From a virus (lineage: Duplodnaviria; Heunggongvirae; Uroviricota; Caudoviricetes): a stretch of 64,000 nt of DNA. The stretch lies in the IMG/VR virus record IMGVR_UViG_2724679058_000003, one strand, 5' to 3'. Position 1 is the stretch's first letter; each line of letters starts with the position of its first letter. Made by a program: the position numbers and the translations under genes. The notes under the pieces are model-generated. The model saw only the letters and a program-made list of their open reading frames with translations. It ran no database searches and was not told where the DNA came from. Of the stretch, positions 15,766-28,670 are shown piece by piece.

Positions 15766-16275
15766 TTAATCCCAGTCAATCCAGTTGTAGACGATACGAA
15801 GTGACGGGCGCACAGCGGCAGTCACATCTTCGGTACTAAAGTCGATTGCATCACTGTAGATTTTGCAGTCCAACATTTCAATTGTTGTAGCAGCTTTTGT
15901 CACAGCTTTAACCCCGGAGGATTTGGATTCAGGAGTTGCAGCCATAGTGATATCAACATAGTCCTTCGCCGCAATGCGATCTTTAATGAATTGAAGAATA
16001 TCACCTTCGATAGTCTCCACGCACTGGACCTGGATTTCCCCGGAGTTACGGATCGGACCGTGCTGGTTGAACTTCACACCATTCGGACCATAGTCCTCCA
16101 CATCCTCGCGGGTCATTTCAGGGATTTGCGACGTGCGAACCAGTACGCTGATATCTTCATGGCCAGCAAAAGTGAGCTGGAATTCAGACGATACCAGTCG
16201 TTCGCCTTTGGCCGCGTTGGCTGTATAACGGCCCTTAATAAATTTACGGTTTCCCTTAGTGTTATTGTGTCCCAT
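15766..16275 (-). CDS. Hypothetical virion protein (tail-tube size)
   Basis: 169-aa ORF upstream of the sheath gene cluster. Confidence 0.55.
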   Translation of the reverse strand: MGHNNTKGNRKFIKGRYTANAAKGERLVSSEFQLTFAGHEDISVLVRTSQIPEMTREDVEDYGPNGVKFNQHGPIRNSGEIQVQCVETIEGDILQFIKDRIAAKDYVDITMAATPESKSSGVKAVTKAATTIEMLDCKIYSDAIDFSTEDVTAAVRPSLRIVYNWIDWD

Positions 16276-16286
16276 ATAAAATCCTT

Positions 16287-16733
16287 TTACTGGAACGCCC
16301 GAATGATATCGGAGCTGTTATATATCGAAGAACCCGTCAACTGGAGGTTGACTGTATTTTTCAGGAAATGCCCGTTGCTGTCCCTGGGCGCATCGAGATC
16401 GAAACTTAGGTCCTGGATAGCGACATCAATGATGTTGATCCGGCGACCAATGTTTAGCGTCACACGCTCCGGGATTCGACCACCAACACTGGCATCTTTA
16501 AGTTCCGGGCTAATCATCGCTGACAACGCGGCGATAGCTCCTGAAACCTCCGTAAACGGGTCAAACAAAGCAATGAAAGTTACTGGCAGCGTAAACGTCG
16601 GCGGAGTTCCCCCTTCCCAAACCATTAAGCTGTTCCAACGGGCAACCGACGTTGTTTCAGTACCAACCTGCGCAAAACCACTGAAGGCACCAGCAACAGA
16701 ACCCATGGACATACCAGAAAAGGAGCCTCCCAA
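16287..16733 (-). CDS. Hypothetical virion protein
   Basis: 148-aa ORF. Confidence 0.55.
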   Translation of the reverse strand: MGGSFSGMSMGSVAGAFSGFAQVGTETTSVARWNSLMVWEGGTPPTFTLPVTFIALFDPFTEVSGAIAALSAMISPELKDASVGGRIPERVTLNIGRRINIIDVAIQDLSFDLDAPRDSNGHFLKNTVNLQLTGSSIYNSSDIIRAFQ

Positions 16734-16902
16734 TTCTGGGCCATGTTCATTGCCGCCCCCTGACTGATATATCCAGTAACCTGATACTTAGAGTTAGTCA
16801 GAGTAACTTTCAGGCATGGTGATACACCATCAGCCTGGCCGTGAACGCCAAAAGGTATAGGTGCCATTCAAGTTAAAGGCCGGAGTTCTCCGGCCTCCTC
16901 CC

Positions 16903-17718
16903 TTAGCCGAGGCGCTTACGGCGCAGTTTCATTGACTTTTTGCGGGCCAGTTTTGCCGCACCGGTCTGGGCTTTACGACGCGCTTTTTTCAGCGCCGATT
17001 TTTGAGCCGCAGTCAGACGTTTTTTACGCAGGCGTTTACGGATGAGTTTGATCTCACCGTTACGAACAACTTTCTTAAATGCCTCCGTCAGCATTTCATC
17101 AGAAGTGCCAGCAACAACAAACGCAGCTTCCAGTTCGTCGCGGTCATCGCTATCCAAACCAGCAATAGCGGAACCGACATCAGCAGCTGCGTCGTCGTCT
17201 TCATCGTCAGCCAGTGCTTCGATCAGGTCATCATCTACACCACATGCTGCGAGGAAGTCAGCAACATTTGCCCATGCTTCGTTATAGGCATCATCCTGTT
17301 CTTCTGTAACTTCGGAGTCGTCATCATCAGAGATGCCAGCGATAGCCTGAACAAAACCATCAAGAGAGTCGAAAGTCAGATCACCGCTATCAGCCCAGGC
17401 GAAAACGGCATCAGCCGCATTACTCAACGCATTCTGCATAGCACTTCGATTTGCAGCTTCCAGAATCATCTGGTGCGCCTGTTCGACAGTCCATTCTTTA
17501 CCGTCTTTCCCCTCCAGGATTTGATCAGGGGCCGGGTCAGATTGAACATTCTCGTTAATCTGTGCCGCCGGTTCCGGATTATTATTAATCTCCGGTTCTA
17601 CTGGCGGTTGGGCACTTGCACGGGCAGATTCCATCAGCTGTACCGGATCAGCGTTTAAAGCGAAACGGGACAGGCCATTCCCCAAAAATGCCCCGGATTG
17701 AAAAAAGTTTTTGCTCAT
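16903..17718 (-). CDS. Acidic protein with strongly basic C-terminal tail (scaffold/internal protein-like)
   Basis: 271 aa; D/E-rich centre and KK/RR-rich C-terminus. Confidence 0.6.
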   Translation of the reverse strand: MSKNFFQSGAFLGNGLSRFALNADPVQLMESARASAQPPVEPEINNNPEPAAQINENVQSDPAPDQILEGKDGKEWTVEQAHQMILEAANRSAMQNALSNAADAVFAWADSGDLTFDSLDGFVQAIAGISDDDDSEVTEEQDDAYNEAWANVADFLAACGVDDDLIEALADDEDDDAAADVGSAIAGLDSDDRDELEAAFVVAGTSDEMLTEAFKKVVRNGEIKLIRKRLRKKRLTAAQKSALKKARRKAQTGAAKLARKKSMKLRRKRLG

Positions 17719-17727
17719 TGTATTCCC

Positions 17728-19317
17728 TTACTTAATAAGCAGCGGTATGCCCTGGATACGACGGGCTACACCTGTCGGGCAGCAGGCCCAGACCACTTCC
17801 CATTTATCGAATTCCGCCTGCGTAACTTTCAGCACATACGGTTCTGTACCGTCAGCATCCGGATCACGAGGAGCCACCAGAGCACCGGCAGCGACAAAGC
17901 GATCCAAAAGTTTGGTCATCCCTTTAGTCAGACCAGCGGCAGTAATACCATCAGGGCTATGCTTCATCTGACGTGCTAACTGGACAAAGAAACGGCTGAT
18001 TGCATTCATCAGGGATGGGACGTGCTGGAAGTGCAGATAGTTATCCTGCGTGCAGCAAGTTAAAGCATCGTCGATGATCATCTGGCCAGAGGTGCCGACA
18101 GATACTTTATTGAGGCGGCCCTTAACCATTGCTTCTTCGTCCGGGGTATCTTCCGGATACAGCGGTTGAATTGACGCACGAGCAATGATGGCGCGTTCTT
18201 CTCCAGCAGGAGAATAATGCCAACCGCCGACATCAGAGTTTTTCTTGACGCCACGAGCTTTCGCCGCATATGCCACGCCAGACAGACCAAAGACCACACG
18301 GGATTGGGTCCATTTGTCTTTGCAGGAGAACGGATAGTGATAGAAAGAACAGCTTACATAATCGGTACCAAGTAAACCGGTATCTTCAACAGCAGACAGC
18401 GCTTCCGTATACGTCAATGTCGGTTTAACATCAAAGAAGCCATCAATCAGGCGATCAGAGCAGATATTACCTAACGCGGTGATCGCCGCATTGTCATAGC
18501 AACCCAGGCCGAGAACAGCGGTGTACATGTACGGCGCATTGTTCAGCACTTTAACCGCGCGCAGGTAAGCAGCAGTTGAGATTTTCGACTGATCGCCGTT
18601 GGTGCCGCCAGTGAATGCCAGCGATTTTTTATTGGCTACTTTCGCTGTCGAAATCAGCTCTTCATTAACAACCGCGCGCAGATATTTAGAACGGGCTTCC
18701 AGAGCCGTAGGCAGGTAACACAAGCGGCCCATATCATCTTTCGCTTCTTCCGCCAAAGATAAAATATGTGTCTCCAGAGTCGTAACCACACCAAGCGAAG
18801 TCGTCTGGGTCAGTTTCAGAAGGAAGCGTTCATTACCTGCACTGTCCGCAGTTGCCGTTTCGATGGTTAACTCACGCGTAGGTGAAACGCATGGGTCGCC
18901 ATCATCAACATAGATTGCAAAGGCTTCGCCGCTATCAAGTTCAATTTCAGAACCGTATGGCAACGCGCTATTAGCCGGTTCACCTGATTCATCGAACATA
19001 ATAATCGGGAATTTTGCATCATCCGGAACAGCACGGACAACATAACCAGACGTTTGCTGAATAGCTTCGTACACATGACGAATTGGTTCGAACTGTGAGC
19101 CTGAAGACGGCTTCAGCGGTTCGCCGAGAACATCCTCGTAATTGGACTCATTAACAGGAAGAACAGTAAACGGCTTGCCACGCGCAAATACACCAATACC
19201 AGCCCATAAGCTGCTATTCAATGTAGCACCGGTAGATAACGTTGCATCAGCATTAATCGGACTAACCGCGACGCCGGATGCATTACCTAATGACTGTTGA
19301 ATTGAATATTGAGACAT
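17728..19317 (-). CDS. Tail sheath protein
   Basis: 529-aa ORF with myovirus-sheath-like composition; position next to the capsid-like gene. Confidence 0.7.
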   Translation of the reverse strand: MSQYSIQQSLGNASGVAVSPINADATLSTGATLNSSLWAGIGVFARGKPFTVLPVNESNYEDVLGEPLKPSSGSQFEPIRHVYEAIQQTSGYVVRAVPDDAKFPIIMFDESGEPANSALPYGSEIELDSGEAFAIYVDDGDPCVSPTRELTIETATADSAGNERFLLKLTQTTSLGVVTTLETHILSLAEEAKDDMGRLCYLPTALEARSKYLRAVVNEELISTAKVANKKSLAFTGGTNGDQSKISTAAYLRAVKVLNNAPYMYTAVLGLGCYDNAAITALGNICSDRLIDGFFDVKPTLTYTEALSAVEDTGLLGTDYVSCSFYHYPFSCKDKWTQSRVVFGLSGVAYAAKARGVKKNSDVGGWHYSPAGEERAIIARASIQPLYPEDTPDEEAMVKGRLNKVSVGTSGQMIIDDALTCCTQDNYLHFQHVPSLMNAISRFFVQLARQMKHSPDGITAAGLTKGMTKLLDRFVAAGALVAPRDPDADGTEPYVLKVTQAEFDKWEVVWACCPTGVARRIQGIPLLIK

Positions 19318-19331
19318 AACTTCCCTGTTAT

Positions 19332-19350
19332 GCGCCCCGCACGGGGGCGC
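19332..19350 (-). other. GC-rich stem-loop between capsid-like and sheath genes
   Basis: GCGCCCC-GCACG-GGGGCGC, 7-bp stem; no U-tract, so more likely a processing/stability hairpin than a terminator. Confidence 0.4.
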
Positions 19351-19376
19351 TATGTTAAACGGAGAACTTCCCCTGA

Positions 19377-21104
19377 TTACTCAGAGTCACCGGCATCAAT
19401 CGTGTCGCCGCTTATGAAGTTAAGCCCGCCTTTTTTGGCCATAGTCAGAGTTACACGGGTGAAGTAATCAGCGCCGTTGCGTGGGTGCATATCGTTGATA
19501 GCTGAACCCCACAGAGTGGTTCGGTTGACCAGCGCCGGAGTAGTCGGATGCTGGAACGGGATAGCTGGGACAGCATCACCAGTCACAAAGCCTGCTTTGC
19601 CCGGGTTTTCATCACGGACGTAGCACAGCACATCCATCGAGCTAAACTGAATGTTCTCTGTCGTTAAGTTCTTACAAATACCAGCAGGTACTTCGTACAC
19701 TTTCACGTTACCGAACAGGGTACCGATGTAGTGAACATACGGAGTCTGAATATAGTCTTCTGCTGGCTGGAAGAAATCCTTCGGCAACTGTTTGAAGAAA
19801 GATGCTGCATCAGCACCAGCAAACATCCCCATCGCACCAGAAGATTTAACGCGCTCAATAATATCGCGATATACAGTCTGGAATTTGCCACGAATGATGG
19901 TTGCCCATACATCAAAGGACTGGTTAACCGGTAGAGCGATGTCAAATGTGTCTGTCGCAAGAGTACGCCAGATCATGATGCGAAGACGCAACATATCCTG
20001 TTCATGAGACAGGTATTCCTTCAGAGTGCGGAACTGTAGAGAACCGAGGTCAAGACCAAATTCACGCTGTGCTTCATACGCCGCCTGTACCGTGTGCTCA
20101 GCTGCAATAACGAACTGGCTGGGGAACAGGGTGTATTTCTTCATTTCGTGGTTAATCAGCGGGATCAGCTCAGGAGCGGCTTCAATATTGATTTCCGTCT
20201 CAATTGCGATCTCGGTGCCTTTATCCGGCGCTTTGGAGAACGACAGGGCAATCTGACCAATGTTGTAGTTCAGAGAGCAGGTAACAGTGATTTGCTCACC
20301 AGCAGCATTAGTAAACGAGTGAAGTAGGCTGCCGGAACCGTTATCAACAACAGACTTAATACGGTTAACGTAGATGTTAGTGCGACCTTTTCGGATTGGT
20401 ACATTCTGGCCTTCGAAGTCTTCCATCTTGAAGGTTGCGGTTTTGCTGGTGCCATCGGAGCTTGCCACCAGCACATAGCGGCGACGTAACTGGCTGTACA
20501 CACCGACGGATTGCATGTCCAGAACATCACCAGCAGCATAAGAACCAAAAGAGGAACCTGCCACGTTAAAGACTTCATAGATGTCGGACTGGTCACGCGT
20601 AACCGGAATGAAGGTACACGCATCAGCGGTAGCTGCCCCCAACTGAACAGGCAGGATCATCGCGAGGAATAAAGGCAGACGCATAACACCGTCAGAAACG
20701 CTCATCATCTCTGCTGCGACGGATTCCAGCATCGCTTTATTAGTGGCATCCATGCTATTGCGGGTGGACTCAATCAGGCAGTTTTCCAGCGTCTGGTGGC
20801 AGGAGGCCAGAATTTCCGGACGCGGCATAGATTTATGTGCTGCGGCGTAGTCAGCCAGTGCACTTGCCCACGCTGTAGCGATTTGAGCGGTGGCATTATC
20901 AGAGATCCCCGCAAAAACCGGGTCTTTACGTGCAGCTTCAAGGATAGATGCGGCACGCGCGGCATCATCTTTGATGAATTGGTTATCAGTACCGAACTGT
21001 GCTGTACTTGCCCAGCCAAGAACGGCTTTAGAGCGTTTTGCGATATCTGCAATACGATTCTGGTATTCGCGTAAGTTACTCAAGTTACTCTTCCTTAAAC
21101 ACAA
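19377..21104 (-). CDS. Major head protein candidate
   Basis: 575-aa ORF adjacent to parS, matching the recalled P1 gene order sheath-head-parS. Confidence 0.5.
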   Translation of the reverse strand: MCLRKSNLSNLREYQNRIADIAKRSKAVLGWASTAQFGTDNQFIKDDAARAASILEAARKDPVFAGISDNATAQIATAWASALADYAAAHKSMPRPEILASCHQTLENCLIESTRNSMDATNKAMLESVAAEMMSVSDGVMRLPLFLAMILPVQLGAATADACTFIPVTRDQSDIYEVFNVAGSSFGSYAAGDVLDMQSVGVYSQLRRRYVLVASSDGTSKTATFKMEDFEGQNVPIRKGRTNIYVNRIKSVVDNGSGSLLHSFTNAAGEQITVTCSLNYNIGQIALSFSKAPDKGTEIAIETEINIEAAPELIPLINHEMKKYTLFPSQFVIAAEHTVQAAYEAQREFGLDLGSLQFRTLKEYLSHEQDMLRLRIMIWRTLATDTFDIALPVNQSFDVWATIIRGKFQTVYRDIIERVKSSGAMGMFAGADAASFFKQLPKDFFQPAEDYIQTPYVHYIGTLFGNVKVYEVPAGICKNLTTENIQFSSMDVLCYVRDENPGKAGFVTGDAVPAIPFQHPTTPALVNRTTLWGSAINDMHPRNGADYFTRVTLTMAKKGGLNFISGDTIDAGDSE

Positions 21105-21214
21105 GGCACTTGTGTGAATCCCTTTTCGGAAGAGATTTTATTAAAAGTCACTTGTTGACTTTCTCGCGAAAAGTAATTTTTTATTTTTTGTAGGGATAGG
21201 GGAGGAGGGTAAAA

Positions 21215-21305
21215 TCCAAGGTGAAATCGTGGCGATTTCACCTTGAAATTTTAGATGAATTTACTTTAAAAACAGATGGTTACAAATGAAATTTCAATGG
21301 CGAAA
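21215..21305. promoter_or_regulatory. parS partition site
   Basis: ATTTCAC heptamers and TCGCCA/TGGCGA hexamers (GTGAAATCGTGGCGATTTCAC ... ATTTCAATGGCGA) flanking an AT-rich centre, directly downstream of parB. Confidence 0.65.
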
Positions 21306-21307
21306 GT

Positions 21308-22309
21308 TTAAGGCTTCGGCTTTTTATCGAGGCTCTTTCTAAGGATATGCCCAATCATCCTGTCAAGTTCTTCCTGTAACTCTTTGGAGAGACGATTAAA
21401 CTCATAGGAAAAGGTACGGCCTTTCACACGCTTCCTTGCGAAACGATCTTTATCCTCAAATTTCCATAATTCAGTAACTACAGACTTATCTTTAGAGCCT
21501 TTATCCGTGAGTAACGAGGCTTCCTTTGTTATCAGGCGAAGGATTTTATTTTTCACTTCATCTTCGGCCATTTCTTCAATGGATAAGATGTCGTTTATTT
21601 CCTGGGATATGTTTTGAATAAGCTGATCAAACTCTAAATCCTTATTCCCCATTTCATCGCCAACAGCGCAAAGCGTTTTGTAGTCCGAAAAGGTTAATTC
21701 CGACTGCACAGGGAAAAGAGCGACTAATTCTTCCGGAGCGCTCGCAGCCTGAAGAGCACGCGTGACCTTCGCCTGAGATAGCCCTTCTTTAGCGGCAATA
21801 TCCTTCTGACTCATTCCATCATTTTTCATTCGCATCAAACGCAGACCTATTTCTCGAATGCTATGCTGCAATGCTGTCTGAAGGTCTTTCGCTAAATTTT
21901 GCGCTTCCTGAACGCTGATCTCCTGATCCGTGACTAAAACCCGCAATCCAACGTGCTCTAAGATGGCCGAAGCTCGACGCCGGGAACCATCCAAAATTTC
22001 AATTTTTCCTGTAGCCCGTCTAACACCTATTGCTGGATAAAATTGCTGATGCTTAATGGTGCTTCTGATGCTTTTTAATGATTTTGGTGTAAGAGCTGCC
22101 TGATCACGTCCGTTGTTATGCTGATCAACAAAGGTATCACCTTCTACCCGGTTCGGAGGGATTACCTCCTCAATGAATGTGGCCTGGCGACCTGTTGATA
22201 GCTTGAATACCTGCTCAACCCGATCACCAGAGGTAGAGGAACTATCAAATGCGCTTAATACTGAAGGATTAAGGGTTCGCCCAATTGTTGGTCTGTTTTT
22301 CTTTGACAT
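21308..22309 (-). CDS. parB: Partition protein ParB
   Basis: 333 aa; ParB motif KIEILDGSRRRAS; matches recalled P1 ParB. Confidence 0.9.
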   Translation of the reverse strand: MSKKNRPTIGRTLNPSVLSAFDSSSTSGDRVEQVFKLSTGRQATFIEEVIPPNRVEGDTFVDQHNNGRDQAALTPKSLKSIRSTIKHQQFYPAIGVRRATGKIEILDGSRRRASAILEHVGLRVLVTDQEISVQEAQNLAKDLQTALQHSIREIGLRLMRMKNDGMSQKDIAAKEGLSQAKVTRALQAASAPEELVALFPVQSELTFSDYKTLCAVGDEMGNKDLEFDQLIQNISQEINDILSIEEMAEDEVKNKILRLITKEASLLTDKGSKDKSVVTELWKFEDKDRFARKRVKGRTFSYEFNRLSKELQEELDRMIGHILRKSLDKKPKP

Positions 22310-22325
22310 GGCGTTTTCTTACTCC

Positions 22326-23522
22326 TTAGTTAGATCTGATAAATTCAATACGGTCAAAAACTGCTTTTGCAAAATCTTCAGCGGCGATGCGCGCGTTCTT
22401 CAGTGCGTCAGCACTACCAACATACGTTGCCGGATTAGCAGAAATAACAGTGTCAAAGGACTCGCCGCAGCGTTCGAAACCATCAAGGCGAGGGAGGACG
22501 ACATCGAGCATATCCCCACCGAAAACTTCTTTCGCCAGGCTATGGCAATACTTATGGTCTGCCTTGTTACTCAACTTGGACATAAAACCAATGTTAGTCG
22601 CAAGCTGGCACTCGCAGCCTTCATCCGAAATGAGTTTCACCAACTCAGGAAGGCGGGCAACGTATTTAAGCGATGAGTGGAAATCGACCGTTGCTGGTGG
22701 CAGAGGTGTAAACAGTATATTGGCCGAGGCCAAAGCATTTTTCAGGAAGGCGTCAAGGTGAGGACCACTATCAACAAGGATAAAGTCATAATCGCTCTTG
22801 AGCTTATCAATCACATTTTCTTTCAGGACTGCATGGATGTTCTGACCCGGTAGATGCTCATTGCATAGCTCTCTCCAATCGGATGCAATAAAGGCATCGT
22901 CAATCGACGCAGGCATAACGTCAACCCCAGGTACAACAGAAGGAACAATAAACTCCTCTAACAGCTCTTCACGGCTTACATTCTGCAACATAGCCTGTGC
23001 AGATGTTGCGTTTACGATACCAATAGAGTGTTTATGGCTTAAAAACATCGTTGCTGAAGATTGCGGATCAAGGTCAATAACCAGAATCCTTAAATCTTCC
23101 ATCAGAAGATGAGGGTGAGCACGCATTGCATGCGCCAGAGAAACCGTCGATACAGTTTTTGACACACCGCCTTTAAGATTGGAGATGAAAATCACATACG
23201 CTTCGCTGTAGCGATCCCGGTATTTTGGCACTCCGCGATGTTCATATATGTCAATGATGTTCTGAATTGACATCGCATATTTCATTGAAGAGCCAGCAGG
23301 GCGTTTATCGAAAACATAACCCTTTTCTTCCATTTCACTTACGGCATAGTCAACGTTCGCTCGAGTCAGTAGAGGCAATTTTGCCAGTGCCGCTTTCGCA
23401 TAGACCTGGTAAAACTCGTTCGCGTGTAGCTCATCCTTTTGCAACTGTACTTGTTCAGTCAGAACATTGAGCATTCTGTTTGCTCTTTGAGCAACCTTGT
23501 GAAGCTGGCTGGAATCACTCAT
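22326..23522 (-). CDS. parA: Partition ATPase ParA
   Basis: 398 aa; Walker A KGGVSKT; MSDSSQLHKVAQRANRMLN... matches recalled P1 ParA. Confidence 0.9.
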   Translation of the reverse strand: MSDSSQLHKVAQRANRMLNVLTEQVQLQKDELHANEFYQVYAKAALAKLPLLTRANVDYAVSEMEEKGYVFDKRPAGSSMKYAMSIQNIIDIYEHRGVPKYRDRYSEAYVIFISNLKGGVSKTVSTVSLAHAMRAHPHLLMEDLRILVIDLDPQSSATMFLSHKHSIGIVNATSAQAMLQNVSREELLEEFIVPSVVPGVDVMPASIDDAFIASDWRELCNEHLPGQNIHAVLKENVIDKLKSDYDFILVDSGPHLDAFLKNALASANILFTPLPPATVDFHSSLKYVARLPELVKLISDEGCECQLATNIGFMSKLSNKADHKYCHSLAKEVFGGDMLDVVLPRLDGFERCGESFDTVISANPATYVGSADALKNARIAAEDFAKAVFDRIEFIRSN

Positions 23523-23661
23523 CGAAAGTCATCCTTTATGCTGTATTTTTGAATTTAATTAAAAATGCTACATAAAATAATAATGTATGCGCAGATGCTT
23601 GTACATAGCATTCTCTGCATGTTTGGTTCATTTTGCACGATTGAGCGTTGCAAGGAGGGCA

Positions 23662-23684
23662 CAAAAAAGCCCCGTTCAGGGGCA
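23662..23684 (-). terminator. Rho-independent terminator after the T5orf172-like gene
   Basis: Minus strand GCCCC-TGAAC-GGGGC followed by TTTTTT. Confidence 0.6.
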
Positions 23685-23690
23685 TCAGTG

Positions 23691-24500
23691 TTATTTGCTA
23701 AGAGCAGCGAATAATCGTTCGAAATCGATAGTATCTATAGCACGCGTAAGCGCCGGAAGTTCAGCCTCAAAGTACCCGTGTCGATCGTAAAAGAAGGGAC
23801 CGAAGAGCGAGGCATGTTGGATTCTACTTCGCCCCAGCCCGGACACACAGTTAAGCCCATTACCGGTTAAAAGGCTAAAAAACTTCTCTGGATTATCGTG
23901 GTAAAGCTGGGAATCAATGGTGGCGGTTAACTCTTCCATAGGGAAGCACACCCGCCCTGTCTCCCAGGGATATTTAGTCCGAAGCATAAACATTGCTTTC
24001 AGCAATTCACATTGAGCGCGGATCGCGTCCGGGTCATAGCCAGATATGGAGACATAAGCCACGTCCCTCATTCCTGCGTCATCTTTGAAAGTCACGATAG
24101 AAGTAACATCCAGTTCTTTTTCGAAAGAGCGAGCAGCATCTACTGGACGCTGAAGTAAATCATTCGACTTAATGCGCTCGAGAATCCCTCCCCACATATC
24201 ATTTAGATATTCGATATGAGCCAAAACCTTATCAAGACACTCTCGTGTAAACCATTCAGTATGCCCGCCACCGGCGCTTTTCTCCCACGGCGCATTCCAG
24301 GGGAAAAAGGTTGCGTGTAAAGCCCGCTCAAGATTAACCATTGCCAAACGCGTACCACGATAGACCCGTGAAAGCGCAAAATCGGGACTCACTTGTAGCC
24401 CTTTAAACCGTGCCAATGGACCACATGAAATGCCGATTTTAAAAGTATCTCCGTTCTCCGGCACCAGAACGTAGAGGTAGTGTTGTTTCTCTTCTTGCAT
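23691..24500 (-). CDS. T5orf172 / GIY-YIG-like domain protein
   Basis: 269 aa; N-terminal YLYVLVPENGDTFKIGIS resembles the GIY-YIG/T5orf172 motif; lies between the downstream iteron array and parA. Confidence 0.6.
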   Translation of the reverse strand: MQEEKQHYLYVLVPENGDTFKIGISCGPLARFKGLQVSPDFALSRVYRGTRLAMVNLERALHATFFPWNAPWEKSAGGGHTEWFTRECLDKVLAHIEYLNDMWGGILERIKSNDLLQRPVDAARSFEKELDVTSIVTFKDDAGMRDVAYVSISGYDPDAIRAQCELLKAMFMLRTKYPWETGRVCFPMEELTATIDSQLYHDNPEKFFSLLTGNGLNCVSGLGRSRIQHASLFGPFFYDRHGYFEAELPALTRAIDTIDFERLFAALSK

Positions 24501-24519
24501 ATCAATACCACTGCTTGAT

Positions 24520-24795
24520 GAGAACCGCGCAAATGTTGACTATGCGCGAAGGTTAATGTGAATAGTTGACTATGCGCGATGTGACTACAGTCAAAAGTTG
24601 ACTGTAGTCGATTTAACTCCACCAAAGATCGACTATGTAAGATATTGTCGGGAGAAACGTTGACTATACGCGATGAAATGACCCTAAAAGCCATCTCAAT
24701 AGCGACTTGCAGAATATTGACGCCAGCAAAAATCCACCAGCGTCAACGAATGTCGTCTATAGTCAACTTCTCGCTATCGCATATAGTCAATATTA
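24520..24795. repeat. Downstream iteron array (incA-like copy-control locus)
   Basis: At least 7 copies of TTGACTATGCGCGA-like 14-16-mers in both orientations. Confidence 0.8.
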
Positions 24796-25554
24796 TGGAT
24801 TGCGCTTATGGATCTGGAAGCCGATTTTCCTGCCGTTTTTTATCTCTGAAAATTTAAGATATTCAATAGCTTCCAAATCTTTCATGGCTTTTCTGATAAC
24901 GCTATTTTGCACGCTAACGGATGATTTGAGATTAAGCCTTGCTCTAAGGCGCTCAATGCTGACAGGTGCCGGGTTGGCGGGTAGAGCCTCAAAGAATGTA
25001 TACAGTACCTTGGCCGTCTCTTTGCGCCCGAGCTTATCCAGCATCTTCAGCTTCAGGATTCGCTTATAGTCAACATAGTAAAGTTCAGATAGCTGTTTCT
25101 GCGGCTGGATCTCGATAACATCAAGCTCGGTATTCAGGCTGCTATATGCCAACAAGTTGACGTTAATGTTATTGAGATGACCTTTTGCCGCCGGGAAGCG
25201 GAATTTGACAACTGTCTGCTGAATGCGTGTCAGAGAGTCATCAATACTTTTACGGAACGCCTTTGAAAGGCGCTTACGTGGATAGCCGCATCGATCGGCA
25301 AACTCGGAGAATGGCAGGGTGATTATACCGTCATCATCAGGTGCGTAGTCAAACAACGCGGAGGTTATGCCCACCCACACCTTAAAATCAGTATCCATAT
25401 CCAGGCGTGGACCATGAATTTCAATTCCCTCATAGCCTTCCTGCTCAACAATTTTGAGGCTTGATAGTTCTTCGGTTGCGTTCGTTGTGTTTGTTGTAAC
25501 TGACGATCCGCGACGTAGCGCCACATTGGTAGATTTTAAGGTTGGCACAAACAC
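24793..25554 (-). CDS. repA: Replication initiator RepA (iteron-binding), annotated from an internal GTG
   Basis: 253-aa ORF flanked by iteron arrays; N-terminal similarity to recalled P1 RepA continues into the upstream overlapping frame. Confidence 0.75.
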   Translation of the reverse strand: MFVPTLKSTNVALRRGSSVTTNTTNATEELSSLKIVEQEGYEGIEIHGPRLDMDTDFKVWVGITSALFDYAPDDDGIITLPFSEFADRCGYPRKRLSKAFRKSIDDSLTRIQQTVVKFRFPAAKGHLNNINVNLLAYSSLNTELDVIEIQPQKQLSELYYVDYKRILKLKMLDKLGRKETAKVLYTFFEALPANPAPVSIERLRARLNLKSSVSVQNSVIRKAMKDLEAIEYLKFSEIKNGRKIGFQIHKRNP

Positions 25555-25556
25555 AC

Positions 25557-25676
25557 CTAACGCAACAAAGCAATGGGTTGTATAGTGCTGTTGTTATTGG
25601 GCTTCAGGCTGTGGATTTCTCCTGTATTTCCTGCAACTTCTTCAACGCTAAGGAAGCCTTTACTTTCTTCCGGCAT
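25557..25676 (-). CDS. Upstream 39-codon ORF: displaced RepA N-terminus or coupled leader peptide
   Basis: ATG at 25676, stop TAG at 25559..25557 two nt before the repA GTG. Confidence 0.4.
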   Translation of the reverse strand: MPEESKGFLSVEEVAGNTGEIHSLKPNNNSTIQPIALLR

Positions 25677-25755
25677 CGTAGTTTCTCCATGTGTGGCGCG
25701 GCCTGACGTCAATTTGGATGGCTGTTATCAACAGCTGTGAATATTCAGGCTCTAA

Positions 25756-25858
25756 AATCGCGTACAGTCAATGTTTCTGTCGCGTATAGTCAACATAAAA
25801 TCGCGTGTAGTCAACAATAAATCGTGTACAGTCAACATAAAATCGCATATAGTCAATG
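25756..25858. repeat. Origin iterons (incC-like), five direct repeats at ~21-bp spacing
   Basis: TCGCGTACAGTCAATG, TCGCGTATAGTCAACA, TCGCGTGTAGTCAACA, TCGTGTACAGTCAACA, TCGCATATAGTCAATG. Confidence 0.85.
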
Positions 25859-25859
25859 T

Positions 25860-25970
25860 TGATCACGTTTCAGGCCAGACATGGCGCGGCCTACAGCGAT
25901 CCGGGATCTTATTTGGATCTTCTTAGGTTCTCTTTTGGATCTGTTTATTGGATCTATGCTGTGGATAAGT
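25860..25970. promoter_or_regulatory. Plasmid origin accessory region: six GATC sites and a DnaA box
   Basis: GATC at 25861, 25898, 25905, 25916, 25937, 25951; TGTGGATAA (complement of TTATCCACA) at 25960..25968. Confidence 0.65.
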
Positions 25971-26019
25971 TGAATAAACCGGCCACTGAGGACCGATTTC
26001 TGTGAAGGGTTGAAGCGAA

Positions 26020-26421
26020 TTAGTTGTCGTTTTCCGTACCTACTTCTTCGATCAACAAACTACTTGTATAGATACGTAACGTATCACCTTTGTAGAGGAA
26101 TTGATAACCAACACCTCCCATGGCAGGGAGGTCGGGGAACATTTCAGAAGCAACCCCAGAGCAAATCACGGCGATACAATCATCCCGCTGTACATCCTTA
26201 CGCTCTGTACTCAAAGTTTGCTCTTCCCCGATTGCCTTTGTCATCTCCTCATCTTCGTACGCAACAGGGATATATTCAATCGCATCAGGCGTTTTGATAC
26301 CCAGTTCTTCAGCAATCTCGAACGCCTGTTTAAATTGATCTGAACCAGGATATCCAACGGTAATACTCTCAATTTCGAACAGAGAAGTAGCGTTATTTAT
26401 TTCTTGTTTAACCGCAAACAT
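26020..26421 (-). CDS. Hypothetical protein
   Basis: 133-aa ORF. Confidence 0.55.
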   Translation of the reverse strand: MFAVKQEINNATSLFEIESITVGYPGSDQFKQAFEIAEELGIKTPDAIEYIPVAYEDEEMTKAIGEEQTLSTERKDVQRDDCIAVICSGVASEMFPDLPAMGGVGYQFLYKGDTLRIYTSSLLIEEVGTENDN

Positions 26422-26491
26422 GTTGTTTGTCCTTAGTGGCTTCCTGCCAAAGTAAAGTCATAAGTGTTGATATTACGATTTCTACAGTTGA

Positions 26492-26851
26492 TTAAATCTG
26501 CTCGCTGAGCTTTTGCTTCAGCAGATAACCTTCCAGCGGCCAGATTTTCTCAATGGCTTTCTTACGGGCCACCTTACGGCCAATCTCCGCGTCGAAATTT
26601 TCAGGGCTGGCACAGGCGCTTTCCCCGGTAACAATGAATCCATTGCACAGCACCAAGACACAGATGGTCAGGCTACGCGTAGAGGGATGAACAGACAGCA
26701 CCTCACGAACGCCTTCATGCGCAGCGCGAATGCCGTCAAAAGCTGTGAAATAATGCTCTTCGGCAATCACACTCTCGATGTGATCAGGAGTCAGGCGTGG
26801 TGCTGTTTTGCCTTTGGCCAGAATCTCTTTTTCAATTTCCATATCGGACAT
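26492..26851 (-). CDS. Hypothetical protein
   Basis: 119-aa ORF. Confidence 0.55.
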   Translation of the reverse strand: MSDMEIEKEILAKGKTAPRLTPDHIESVIAEEHYFTAFDGIRAAHEGVREVLSVHPSTRSLTICVLVLCNGFIVTGESACASPENFDAEIGRKVARKKAIEKIWPLEGYLLKQKLSEQI

Positions 26852-28653: not shown

Positions 28654-28670
28654 ATTGCTCTAATAAATAT
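28654..28670 (+). promoter_or_regulatory. C1-type operator upstream of the rdgC-dmt operon
   Basis: ATTGCTCTAATAAATAT, 16/17 consensus match. Confidence 0.7.

Follow-up and report, generated by a model that had tools for sequence, protein, structure and literature searches.

The stretch of DNA examined here, referred to as the window, consists of 64,000 nucleotides (nt) of the IMG/VR virus record IMGVR_UViG_2724679058_000003 (Caudoviricetes) and contains the replication and partition region of a P1-like element. Between the control iterons and the promoter of parA (Ppar), there is a gene that encodes a protein of the GIY-YIG/T5orf172 nuclease family. This nuclease gene closes an exchangeable replicon cassette, which consists of origin iterons, repA, control iterons, and the gene itself with its terminator. 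The replicon of the window is of the p0111 type, which is a different allele from that of P1, and homologues of the gene occupy the same slot in three other lineages of P1-like elements. The shared slot, the block that moves with the gene, the presence/absence allele, and a G+C content like that of the flanks suggest that the nuclease gene is an ancestral or site-specific resident of the slot.

The gene is a complete open reading frame (ORF) of 269 amino acids (aa) plus a stop codon. It starts with ATG and is found at 23691..24500 on the minus strand, exactly where the initial annotation had placed a 269-aa ORF between the downstream iterons and the parA promoter. A terminator of its own had also been proposed, and an intrinsic hairpin followed by six T residues is present on the strand of the gene (GCCCC-TGAAC-GGGGC then TTTTTT), beginning 7 nt past the stop codon. 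The order on the minus strand is an upfA-like gene, the GATC/DnaA-box part of oriR, the origin iterons, repA, the control iterons, the nuclease gene, the terminator, Ppar, parA, parB, and gene 23. The last control iteron and the ATG are separated by 30 nt. The G+C content of the gene is 0.48, close to that of the flanking DNA, and no transposon ends, insertion sequence (IS) elements, or integrase were found beside it.

Replicon Type

In a megablast of 21000-26000, canonical P1 (NC_005856, AF234172/3, and K02380) aligned to 21001-23622 only, which is the part that contains parB, parA, and Ppar. RCS47, SJ46, phi456, JL22, and others aligned across 21000-26000 at 96.7-96.9%. A total of 392 PLSDB plasmids cover at least 80% of 23620-26020. 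These are from Escherichia, Salmonella, Shigella, and Klebsiella, and nearly all of them are 95-99% identical. The 23620-26020 block is present at 96.7-99.1% nt identity in 392 plasmids and 12 phage records, including pO111_2 (NC_013370), which we take to be the PlasmidFinder 'p0111' reference. The nuclease gene itself is present in approximately 400 PLSDB plasmids and 12 phage records. The window is a member of the p0111-type replicons (pO111_2, RCS47, SJ46, and JL22), with 96.7-99% nt identity over repA, the iterons, and the nuclease gene. In the study of JL22, 'repA' (p0111) and an unknown gene, gp57', were found to take the place of the IncY repA (PMC9603915).

The P1/P7 replicon-partition region (IncY) has the same arrangement of a DnaA-box/GATC region, five origin iterons, repA, control iterons, and Ppar-parA-parB-parS. 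However, the RepA of the window, while a true homologue, is only 42% identical to P1 RepA (E=9e-71), the iteron is TCGCGTATAGTCAAC in the window and GATGTGTGCTGGAGGGA in P1, and in P1 (NC_005856) the place of the nuclease gene and its terminator is taken by a non-coding spacer of approximately 190 bp that separates Ppar from incA iteron 1. The absence of the gene from the rep-par interval of P1 agrees with the initial annotation. Identity to P1 ends at about 23624-23630, which is 61-67 nt past the stop codon of the nuclease gene, and returns at about 25874, in the GATC/DnaA-box part of oriR. Since identity to P1 is lost between these edges, the nuclease gene lies inside a 2.25-kb alternative replicon allele and not in a P1-type replicon. 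Nothing beyond chance was found when the 190-bp spacer of P1 was searched for a remnant of the gene (tblastn with the four homologues and blastn-short), so that loss and never having been present are not distinguishable for P1. It looks like an empty-site or loss state and not like the ancestral state.

Identity to P1 is a mosaic across 15875-23624. It is 98-100% at 22625-23624 (Ppar and the 5' two-thirds of parA) and also for part of gene 23 (20125-20874), 91-95% at 21125-22624 (the 3' end of parA, and parB), and 87-96% farther on.

The repA gene of the window has a 1-bp deletion at about 25559-25560 (within 25557-25561), at about codon 40, with a TAG stop after 39 codons. The remainder is 253 codons in another frame from a GTG codon. 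The deletion is seen relative to RCS47, Escherichia albertii pEA24_3, and the element L003 described below. It is unique among the 48 loci that were compared, and it is the sole coding indel over 8.4 kb in comparison with pEA24_3. A single sequencing error would explain it, as would a genuinely defective or re-initiating initiator. MOB-suite assigns near-identical E. albertii plasmids to 'IncHI1B', which looks wrong for a p0111-type replicon.

Homologues in the Same Slot

Relatives of the nuclease protein were searched for in 5.8 billion clustered proteins and 1.84 billion representatives. Beyond its own cluster of approximately 98% identity, only three full-length relatives were found, P0004 (43% identity), P0009 (27%), and P0011 (25-30%). 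Each of the three genes has repA and its control iterons on one side and parA on the other. Their hosts are P1-like elements of approximately 90 kb, with rdgC-dmt and PAAR/upfB/ppfA upstream and parAB, gene 23, and the sheath gene downstream. The full-length family is confined to P1-like elements, in four sequence types. There were 162 matches at E <1e-3 in the 1.84 billion representatives, and all but the full-length relatives span only the N-terminal 100 residues. The contexts of these N-domain-only homologues are mixed (a phage region rich in homing endonucleases, a mobilizable plasmid, and a chromosomal island), with no general linkage to a replicon. P0013 (291 aa; L009 8001-8876, chromosome CP168302.1, GCA_041726985.1) matches only the T5orf172 N-domain of the family. 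Its neighbors are Mrr_cat/Zn-ribbon, WYL/WCX, and Hypoth_Ymh genes, and the region resembles a defense island.

The four lineages contain three iteron types, and in all of them the start codon of the nuclease gene is 23-30 nt past the last control iteron. L003 has a RepA of the window type (84% identical) and the same iteron as the window. L006 and L007, both from Salmonella enterica, have a P1-type RepA (83% to P1) and P1-type iterons. In L008, both RepA (43-48% to the others) and the iteron, GGCTACTGnATGCTAC, are of a third type, and the nuclease homologue is followed by an analogous hairpin and T-run. The homologues are 25-43% identical among the lineages.

The flanks of L003 and L006 are 96-98.6% identical on both sides (ParA 100%, ParB 98%, and gp23 99%), but between the first origin iteron and a point 63-84 nt beyond the stop codon of the nuclease gene, the two cannot be aligned. 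This pattern indicates that the origin iterons, repA, the control iterons, and the nuclease gene move as one unit, with the nuclease gene as its right-hand edge. In three independent comparisons, the recombination breakpoints were located 43-85 nt downstream of the gene. This position matches that of published T5orf172 nuclease genes beside essential genes and at the boundaries of exchanged segments (PMC10448857).

Presence and absence of the gene at a fixed site were seen for the window and P1 and also within Salmonella. Plasmid p21-SA00706-0 has a RepA that is 90% identical to that of L006, and the nuclease gene is absent. The difference between the two is a clean indel of approximately 937 bp that reaches from the last iteron to a conserved CCTCCCTG motif upstream of Ppar. 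In L006, the segment with the gene is bracketed by iteron-like CAGCACAC(A/T) sequences (L006 8883-8925 and 7962-7980). The left bracket is the last iteron and the right one is a partial iteron-like CACACAGCACATCC. These brackets could mark a deletion between short repeats or an insertion junction.

No IncY-type plasmid or phage with a homologue of the Salmonella type was found by tblastn against PLSDB and INPHARED. The census of genome contigs and viral contigs gave the window-type allele only, and the diverged types were reached only through HMMER and Logan/NCBI look-ups.

Protein Family and Predicted Structure

The N-terminal GIY-YIG-type domain that was initially proposed is supported by Pfam. 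T5orf172 (PF10544), which belongs to the GIY-YIG clan, matches residues 8-85 with 27.5 bits (E=4.6e-6), and its gathering cut-off is 20 bits. The initial annotation depended on such a nuclease-family match and on canonical P1 having no gene at this position, and both were found. MUG113 and Tox-URI2 of the same clan also match the protein, both below threshold. PHROG 2876, which is of unknown function, matches the full length (E=7e-193), and phrog_681 ('endonuclease') gives a weak match to residues 4-100 (E=5e-9). No family was found in NCBIfam or, at E up to 1, among the PADLOC-DB defense models. Identical copies in E. albertii plasmids are labeled 'GIY-YIG nuclease family protein' (WP_059257154.1). 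In phage phi456 (OR339795.1), the feature that lies under the tblastn match of the Salmonella protein P0009 to the nuclease gene is labeled 'terminase small subunit', which is almost certainly a mis-annotation.

In the alignment of the four sequences, Y10, K21-I22-G23, R31, H62, and E82 are invariant. The motifs are spaced as Y10, 11 residues, K21-I22-G23, 8 residues, and R31, and E82 is within TEWF. A lysine in place of the tyrosine of YIG is usual in T5orf172. The catalytic positions are Arg31 and Glu82, both of which are among the invariant residues.

An AlphaFold model made with the four-sequence alignment improved to a mean predicted local distance difference test (pLDDT) score of 73. It contains an N-domain, a low-confidence linker that differs in length among the lineages, and a C-domain (Table 1). 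The modeled N-domain has the GIY-YIG alpha/beta fold and matches Slx1 GIY-YIG nucleases. Outside of the four P1-like types, the C-domain has no relatives at the level of sequence, and a comparison of this domain alone with Pfam and the sequences of the Protein Data Bank gave nothing meaningful (top matches OB_POT1A, E 0.27, and 2l9d, E 0.08). With two methods of structure comparison, the top matches of the C-domain were WH1 domains of iteron-binding initiators. With Foldseek, these were 6h24_A (E 6e-3, probability 0.99, and a template modeling score of 0.43, which is modest and for a predicted model), RctB (probability 0.82), and RepE54 (probability 0.44-0.6). The predicted fold of the C-domain thus appears to be nearest, with modest similarity, to the WH1 of iteron-binding Rep initiators. 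The C-domains of the window and L003 are only 32% identical, although their RepA proteins are 84% identical and their iterons are the same. For the remaining pairs of lineages, the identity is 15-26% (15-32% overall). Such fast divergence of the C-domain relative to RepA is as expected of a specificity domain under conflict.

Comparison with Known Nucleases

The closest parallel may be the origin-directed nuclease (Odn), gp88 of vibriophage ICP1, which cuts the iterons of a rival and is specific to a replicon type (PMC8263062). As in Odn, a T5orf172 domain that keeps the catalytic Arg and Glu is joined to what is modeled here as a DNA-binding domain of the initiator kind. Specificity would also be tied to the replicon type, and the setting is again one of conflict between mobile elements. 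However, the DNA-binding domain is N-terminal in Odn and C-terminal here. The RepA_N domain of Odn is 42% identical to the RepA of its target, whereas here there is only a likeness to Rep_3-type WH1 at the level of the fold. Odn is a gene of a lytic phage with an experimentally shown target, whereas the gene described here is part of a plasmid replicon cassette and its target is putative. An hhalign comparison of the nuclease family with the alignment of P1-family RepA proteins showed no similarity, and a recent chimera of the Odn kind that involves the RepA of the cassette is thereby ruled out.

Free-standing T5orf172 homing endonuclease genes are found in ICP1, T5-like, and other phages (PMC10448857). 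They share the catalytic family (BFVD matches) with the gene of the window, and they too lie beside essential genes and at the edges of exchanged modules, are present or absent, and decay by point mutation. In contrast, approximately 87% of them have CapR/DUF723/DUF4397 zinc-finger DNA-binding domains, whereas the domain here is cysteine-poor and winged-helix-like. They are sporadic, whereas the gene here is fixed in one type of cassette, in the prophage-maintenance region of a temperate phage-plasmid. One derivative of the T5orf172 lineage, CapR, has been domesticated as a DNA-binding protein (PMC10448857). The GIY-YIG homing endonucleases I-TevI and T4 Seg have a similar layout of an N-terminal catalytic domain of approximately 100 residues, a linker, and a C-terminal DNA-binding domain. 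Their motif spacing is identical (Y, 11, xIG, 8, R, and then E). Unlike these, the protein here is of the T5orf172 subfamily with KIG for YIG, its gene is intergenic and free-standing in a plasmid module, and homing is putative.

Expression, Selection, and Decay

Between the repA stop and the nuclease ATG, neither a terminator nor a consensus sigma-70 promoter was found on the strand of the gene by a sigma-70 scan, and only poor hexamers were seen by eye. The Shine-Dalgarno sequence is weak in all four lineages. None of the nine C1 operator sites in the window is near the cassette, the nearest one being at 28654. The P1 repA promoter is located within the origin iterons and is autorepressed by RepA. 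Transcription from the repA promoter, which RepA autoregulates, probably runs on through the iteron array and yields a small amount of the nuclease. Expression would then take place in the plasmid (prophage) state, and the terminator (23683-23659) would close the transcript of repA and the nuclease gene and insulate Ppar.

Forty-eight window-type loci were compared (the window, RCS47, pEA24_3, one genome contig, and 44 IMG/VR contigs). The 39 intact copies represent 26 distinct alleles with 28 synonymous and 34 non-synonymous variants, and the ratio of non-synonymous to synonymous polymorphism (pN/pS) is approximately 0.35. The nuclease gene is under moderate purifying selection, and its ORF is still open across divergence down to 25% identity. 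The allele of the window is intact, unlike those of pO111_2 and SJ46. Five loci have S112→TAG (L014, L015, L019, L021, and L022, of which L015 is pO111_2, NC_013370). This amber codon is in the linker and would leave a stand-alone nuclease domain of 111 aa. Phage SJ46 (L044) has Q228→TAA. W68→TAG is found in one locus and an insertion after codon 98 in another (L049 and L052). There are three independent nonsense alleles, and the knock-outs sit in otherwise intact cassettes. Among these loci, an intact repA is found in 46 of 48 and an intact parB in 47 of 47. Disrupted alleles in maintained elements indicate that the nuclease gene is dispensable for maintenance and for phage propagation.

Possible Function of the Nuclease

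The protein would be a two-domain nuclease in which a flexible linker joins an N-terminal T5orf172 catalytic domain to a C-terminal winged-helix domain that evolves fast and binds DNA. We tentatively favor the reading, which we place somewhat short of an even chance, that it is a site-specific nuclease, homing-endonuclease-like or Odn-like, that acts on rival or sister P1-like plasmids. The C-domain would direct the nuclease to a specific site on a related P1-like element, either one with no nuclease gene or one with another type of cassette. This site is probably at or near the junction of the iterons and Ppar. The cut rival plasmid could be lost, or it could be repaired from the nuclease-bearing copy, and the outcome would favor the nuclease gene and the replicon cassette linked to it. 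Such a selfish or competitive nuclease is suggested by the catalytic residues, the order of nuclease, linker, and binding domain, the fixed intergenic slot, and the presence/absence allele. It is also suggested by the breakpoints that cluster just downstream, the fast evolution of the C-domain, and the dispensability of the gene with its sporadic decay. A more specific version, which we regard as doubtful, is an iteron-anchored nuclease for homing or competition. In this case, the Rep-WH1-like domain would dock at the control-iteron/Ppar junction of the rival and the T5orf172 domain would cut, so that the rival is eliminated or its cassette is converted.

Several observations weigh against a selfish or competitive nuclease. 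The divergence of the homologues roughly tracks that of RepA, and vertical co-inheritance in the cassette fits this as well as homing does. The gene is apparently fixed in all p0111-type cassettes of PLSDB, which means that there is no current empty p0111 site for homing. IncY and p0111 cassettes were reported at a similar frequency, 31 and 24 of 55 (PMC9603915), and this gives no sign of drive. The 32% identity of the C-domains of the window and L003, which have the same iteron, argues against simple recognition of a conserved iteron. No gradient of co-conversion was found beside the gene, where the adjacent 1 kb or so is 98-100% identical to P1 and divergence rises farther off. The catalytic activity and the target of the nuclease are putative.

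A different role would be that of a domesticated accessory factor of replication or copy control, with a WH1-like C-domain that binds the control iterons or heterodimerizes with RepA. Such a factor would modulate initiation, handcuffing, or the repA/par transcriptional boundary, and its nuclease domain would nick or be vestigial. The gene is always directly after the control iterons and is co-inherited with repA and the iteron type. The best structural matches of its C-domain are to Rep WH1, the domains for dimerization and the iteron half-site, and it lies in a prophage-expressed maintenance region with no C1 operator. CapR would be a precedent for a domesticated protein of the T5orf172 lineage (PMC10448857). 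Nevertheless, an accessory factor is unlikely, since P1 and Salmonella p21-SA00706-0 replicate without the gene and with the same architecture, and nonsense alleles are found in pO111_2 and the phage-plasmid SJ46. Invariant catalytic residues would be unexpected in a pure DNA or protein binder, and the C-domain keeps only 32% identity in a pair of lineages with the same iteron and with RepA proteins that are 84% identical. Phage-plasmids often carry defense genes, and the protein could instead be an Odn-like weapon or defense against unrelated elements, such as other plasmids, satellites, or infecting phages, that protects the lysogen or the phage-plasmid. The N-domain-only homologue P0013 is found near Mrr, WYL/WCX, and Ymh-family genes, and Odn of ICP1 is a T5orf172 nuclease with an initiator-type DNA-binding domain that cleaves the iterons of a satellite (PMC8263062). 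The family is limited to one slot and co-varies with the cassette type, which argues for a target within the P1 family. There is also no PADLOC match, and there is no sequence similarity to any initiator, compared with the 42% of Odn to the RepA of its target. A role against unrelated elements thus appears improbable.

The decay of the gene could also mean that it is a functionless relic, an old selfish nuclease gene that drifts to loss after fixation of the cassette. Approximately 17% of the loci besides that of the window are disrupted (8/47); the causes are three independent nonsense mutations, an insertion, and a truncation where a contig ends. The Shine-Dalgarno sequence is weak, no promoter was detected upstream of the gene, and P1 and the Salmonella relative do not have the gene. 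A relic is nevertheless quite improbable given a pN/pS of approximately 0.35 in the intact alleles and the retention of the full ORF and the catalytic residues at 25-43% identity, far past the lifetime of a neutral ORF. The initial annotation had read the gene as cargo inserted into the plasmid-maintenance core, which is taken here as a recent insertion into a P1-type rep-par core. Its absence from canonical P1, the part of the rep-par comparison that agreed with this reading, and its own terminator are compatible with an insertion. The other part of the comparison is not, as orthologous genes fill the same slot in L003, L006/L007, and L008, so that four diverged cassettes have it. In addition, the surrounding replicon is the p0111 allele and not that of P1, the cassette moves as a whole, the G+C content matches the flanks, and no transposon ends, IS, or integrase are alongside. 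No copy of more than 90% identity was found in unrelated contexts in the plasmid, phage, viral, and genome collections. We therefore consider recent insertion of cargo highly improbable.

Significance

P1-like phage-plasmids are widespread carriers of extended-spectrum beta-lactamase (ESBL) and mcr genes and are typed by their IncY and p0111 replicons. To our knowledge, the exchange of IncY and p0111 cassettes and the competition of co-resident P1-like elements are not understood. A catalytically plausible nuclease that is borne on the cassette, lies at the recombination boundary, and co-varies with the replicon type is a candidate for a role in both. If the more specific, iteron-anchored version is correct, plasmid incompatibility would have an additional layer based on a nuclease, and this nuclease would drive the IncY/p0111 replicon swaps. 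The candidate would also carry the theme of T5orf172 homing endonucleases and Odn beyond lytic phages and into the maintenance modules of plasmids. Should the predicted fold be right, Odn would no longer be the only nuclease joined to a DNA-binding fold of the initiator type, and the second case would be independent. If its function is mundane, the gene is a dispensable and already annotated passenger of the p0111 replicon and not a novel insertion.

The ORF is already known from hundreds of records as 'GIY-YIG nuclease family protein'. A full-text literature search for P1-like, GIY-YIG, and plasmid found no relevant study. With respect to the literature searched, it is new that the gene belongs to the conserved content of the replicon cassette in at least four cassette lineages, one of them P1-type, that there is an empty-site allele, and that the family is confined to the rep-par slot. 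Also new in this respect is the combination of a nuclease with a C-domain that lacks relatives in sequence and may be Rep-WH1-like.

Features of the Replication and Partition Region

Table 1. Features of the replication and partition region, with their positions in the window.
Feature	Position	Strand	Remarks
Nuclease-type gene	23691..24500	-	Complete ORF, T5orf172/GIY-YIG family
N-terminal nuclease domain, aa 1-105	24186..24500	-	T5orf172 / GIY-YIG fold
Linker, aa 106-127	24120..24185	-	pLDDT <50 at residues 117-126; alignment gaps
C-terminal domain, aa 128-269	23694..24119	-	Predicted alpha/beta winged-helix fold
Intrinsic terminator	23659..23683	-	5-bp GC stem, 5-nt loop, T6
Downstream incA-like iteron array	24531..24794	.	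At least 6 copies of TCGCGyATAGTCAAC, both orientations
repA, p0111 type	24793..25676	-	Rep3_N/Rep3_C; 42% identity to P1 RepA
Five origin iterons, incC-like, 21-22-bp spacing	25757..25860	.	Left edge of exchangeable cassette
GATC-rich/DnaA-box part of oriR	25875..25985	.	~81-85% identity to P1 oriR
Ppar and ParA operator region	23523..23630	-	Near-identical to P1; marks right cassette edge
Ppar	23605-23577	-	Inside Ppar/ParA operator region
parA	22326-23522	-	Protein 100% identical to P1 ParA
parB	21308-22309	-	Protein 97% identical to P1 ParB
upfA-like gene	26020-26421	-	Divergent; before oriR on the strand of the nuclease gene

A second variable patch is found at 25977-26841, directly across the conserved oriR core from the cassette, and it holds the divergent upfA-like gene and an extra gene for a 119-aa protein of the 'Gp49 family' (26492-26851). 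P1 and RCS47 do not have the latter at the same position. The same Gp49-family gene is present in Salmonella plasmid p21-SA00706-0 (L060 3188-3550).

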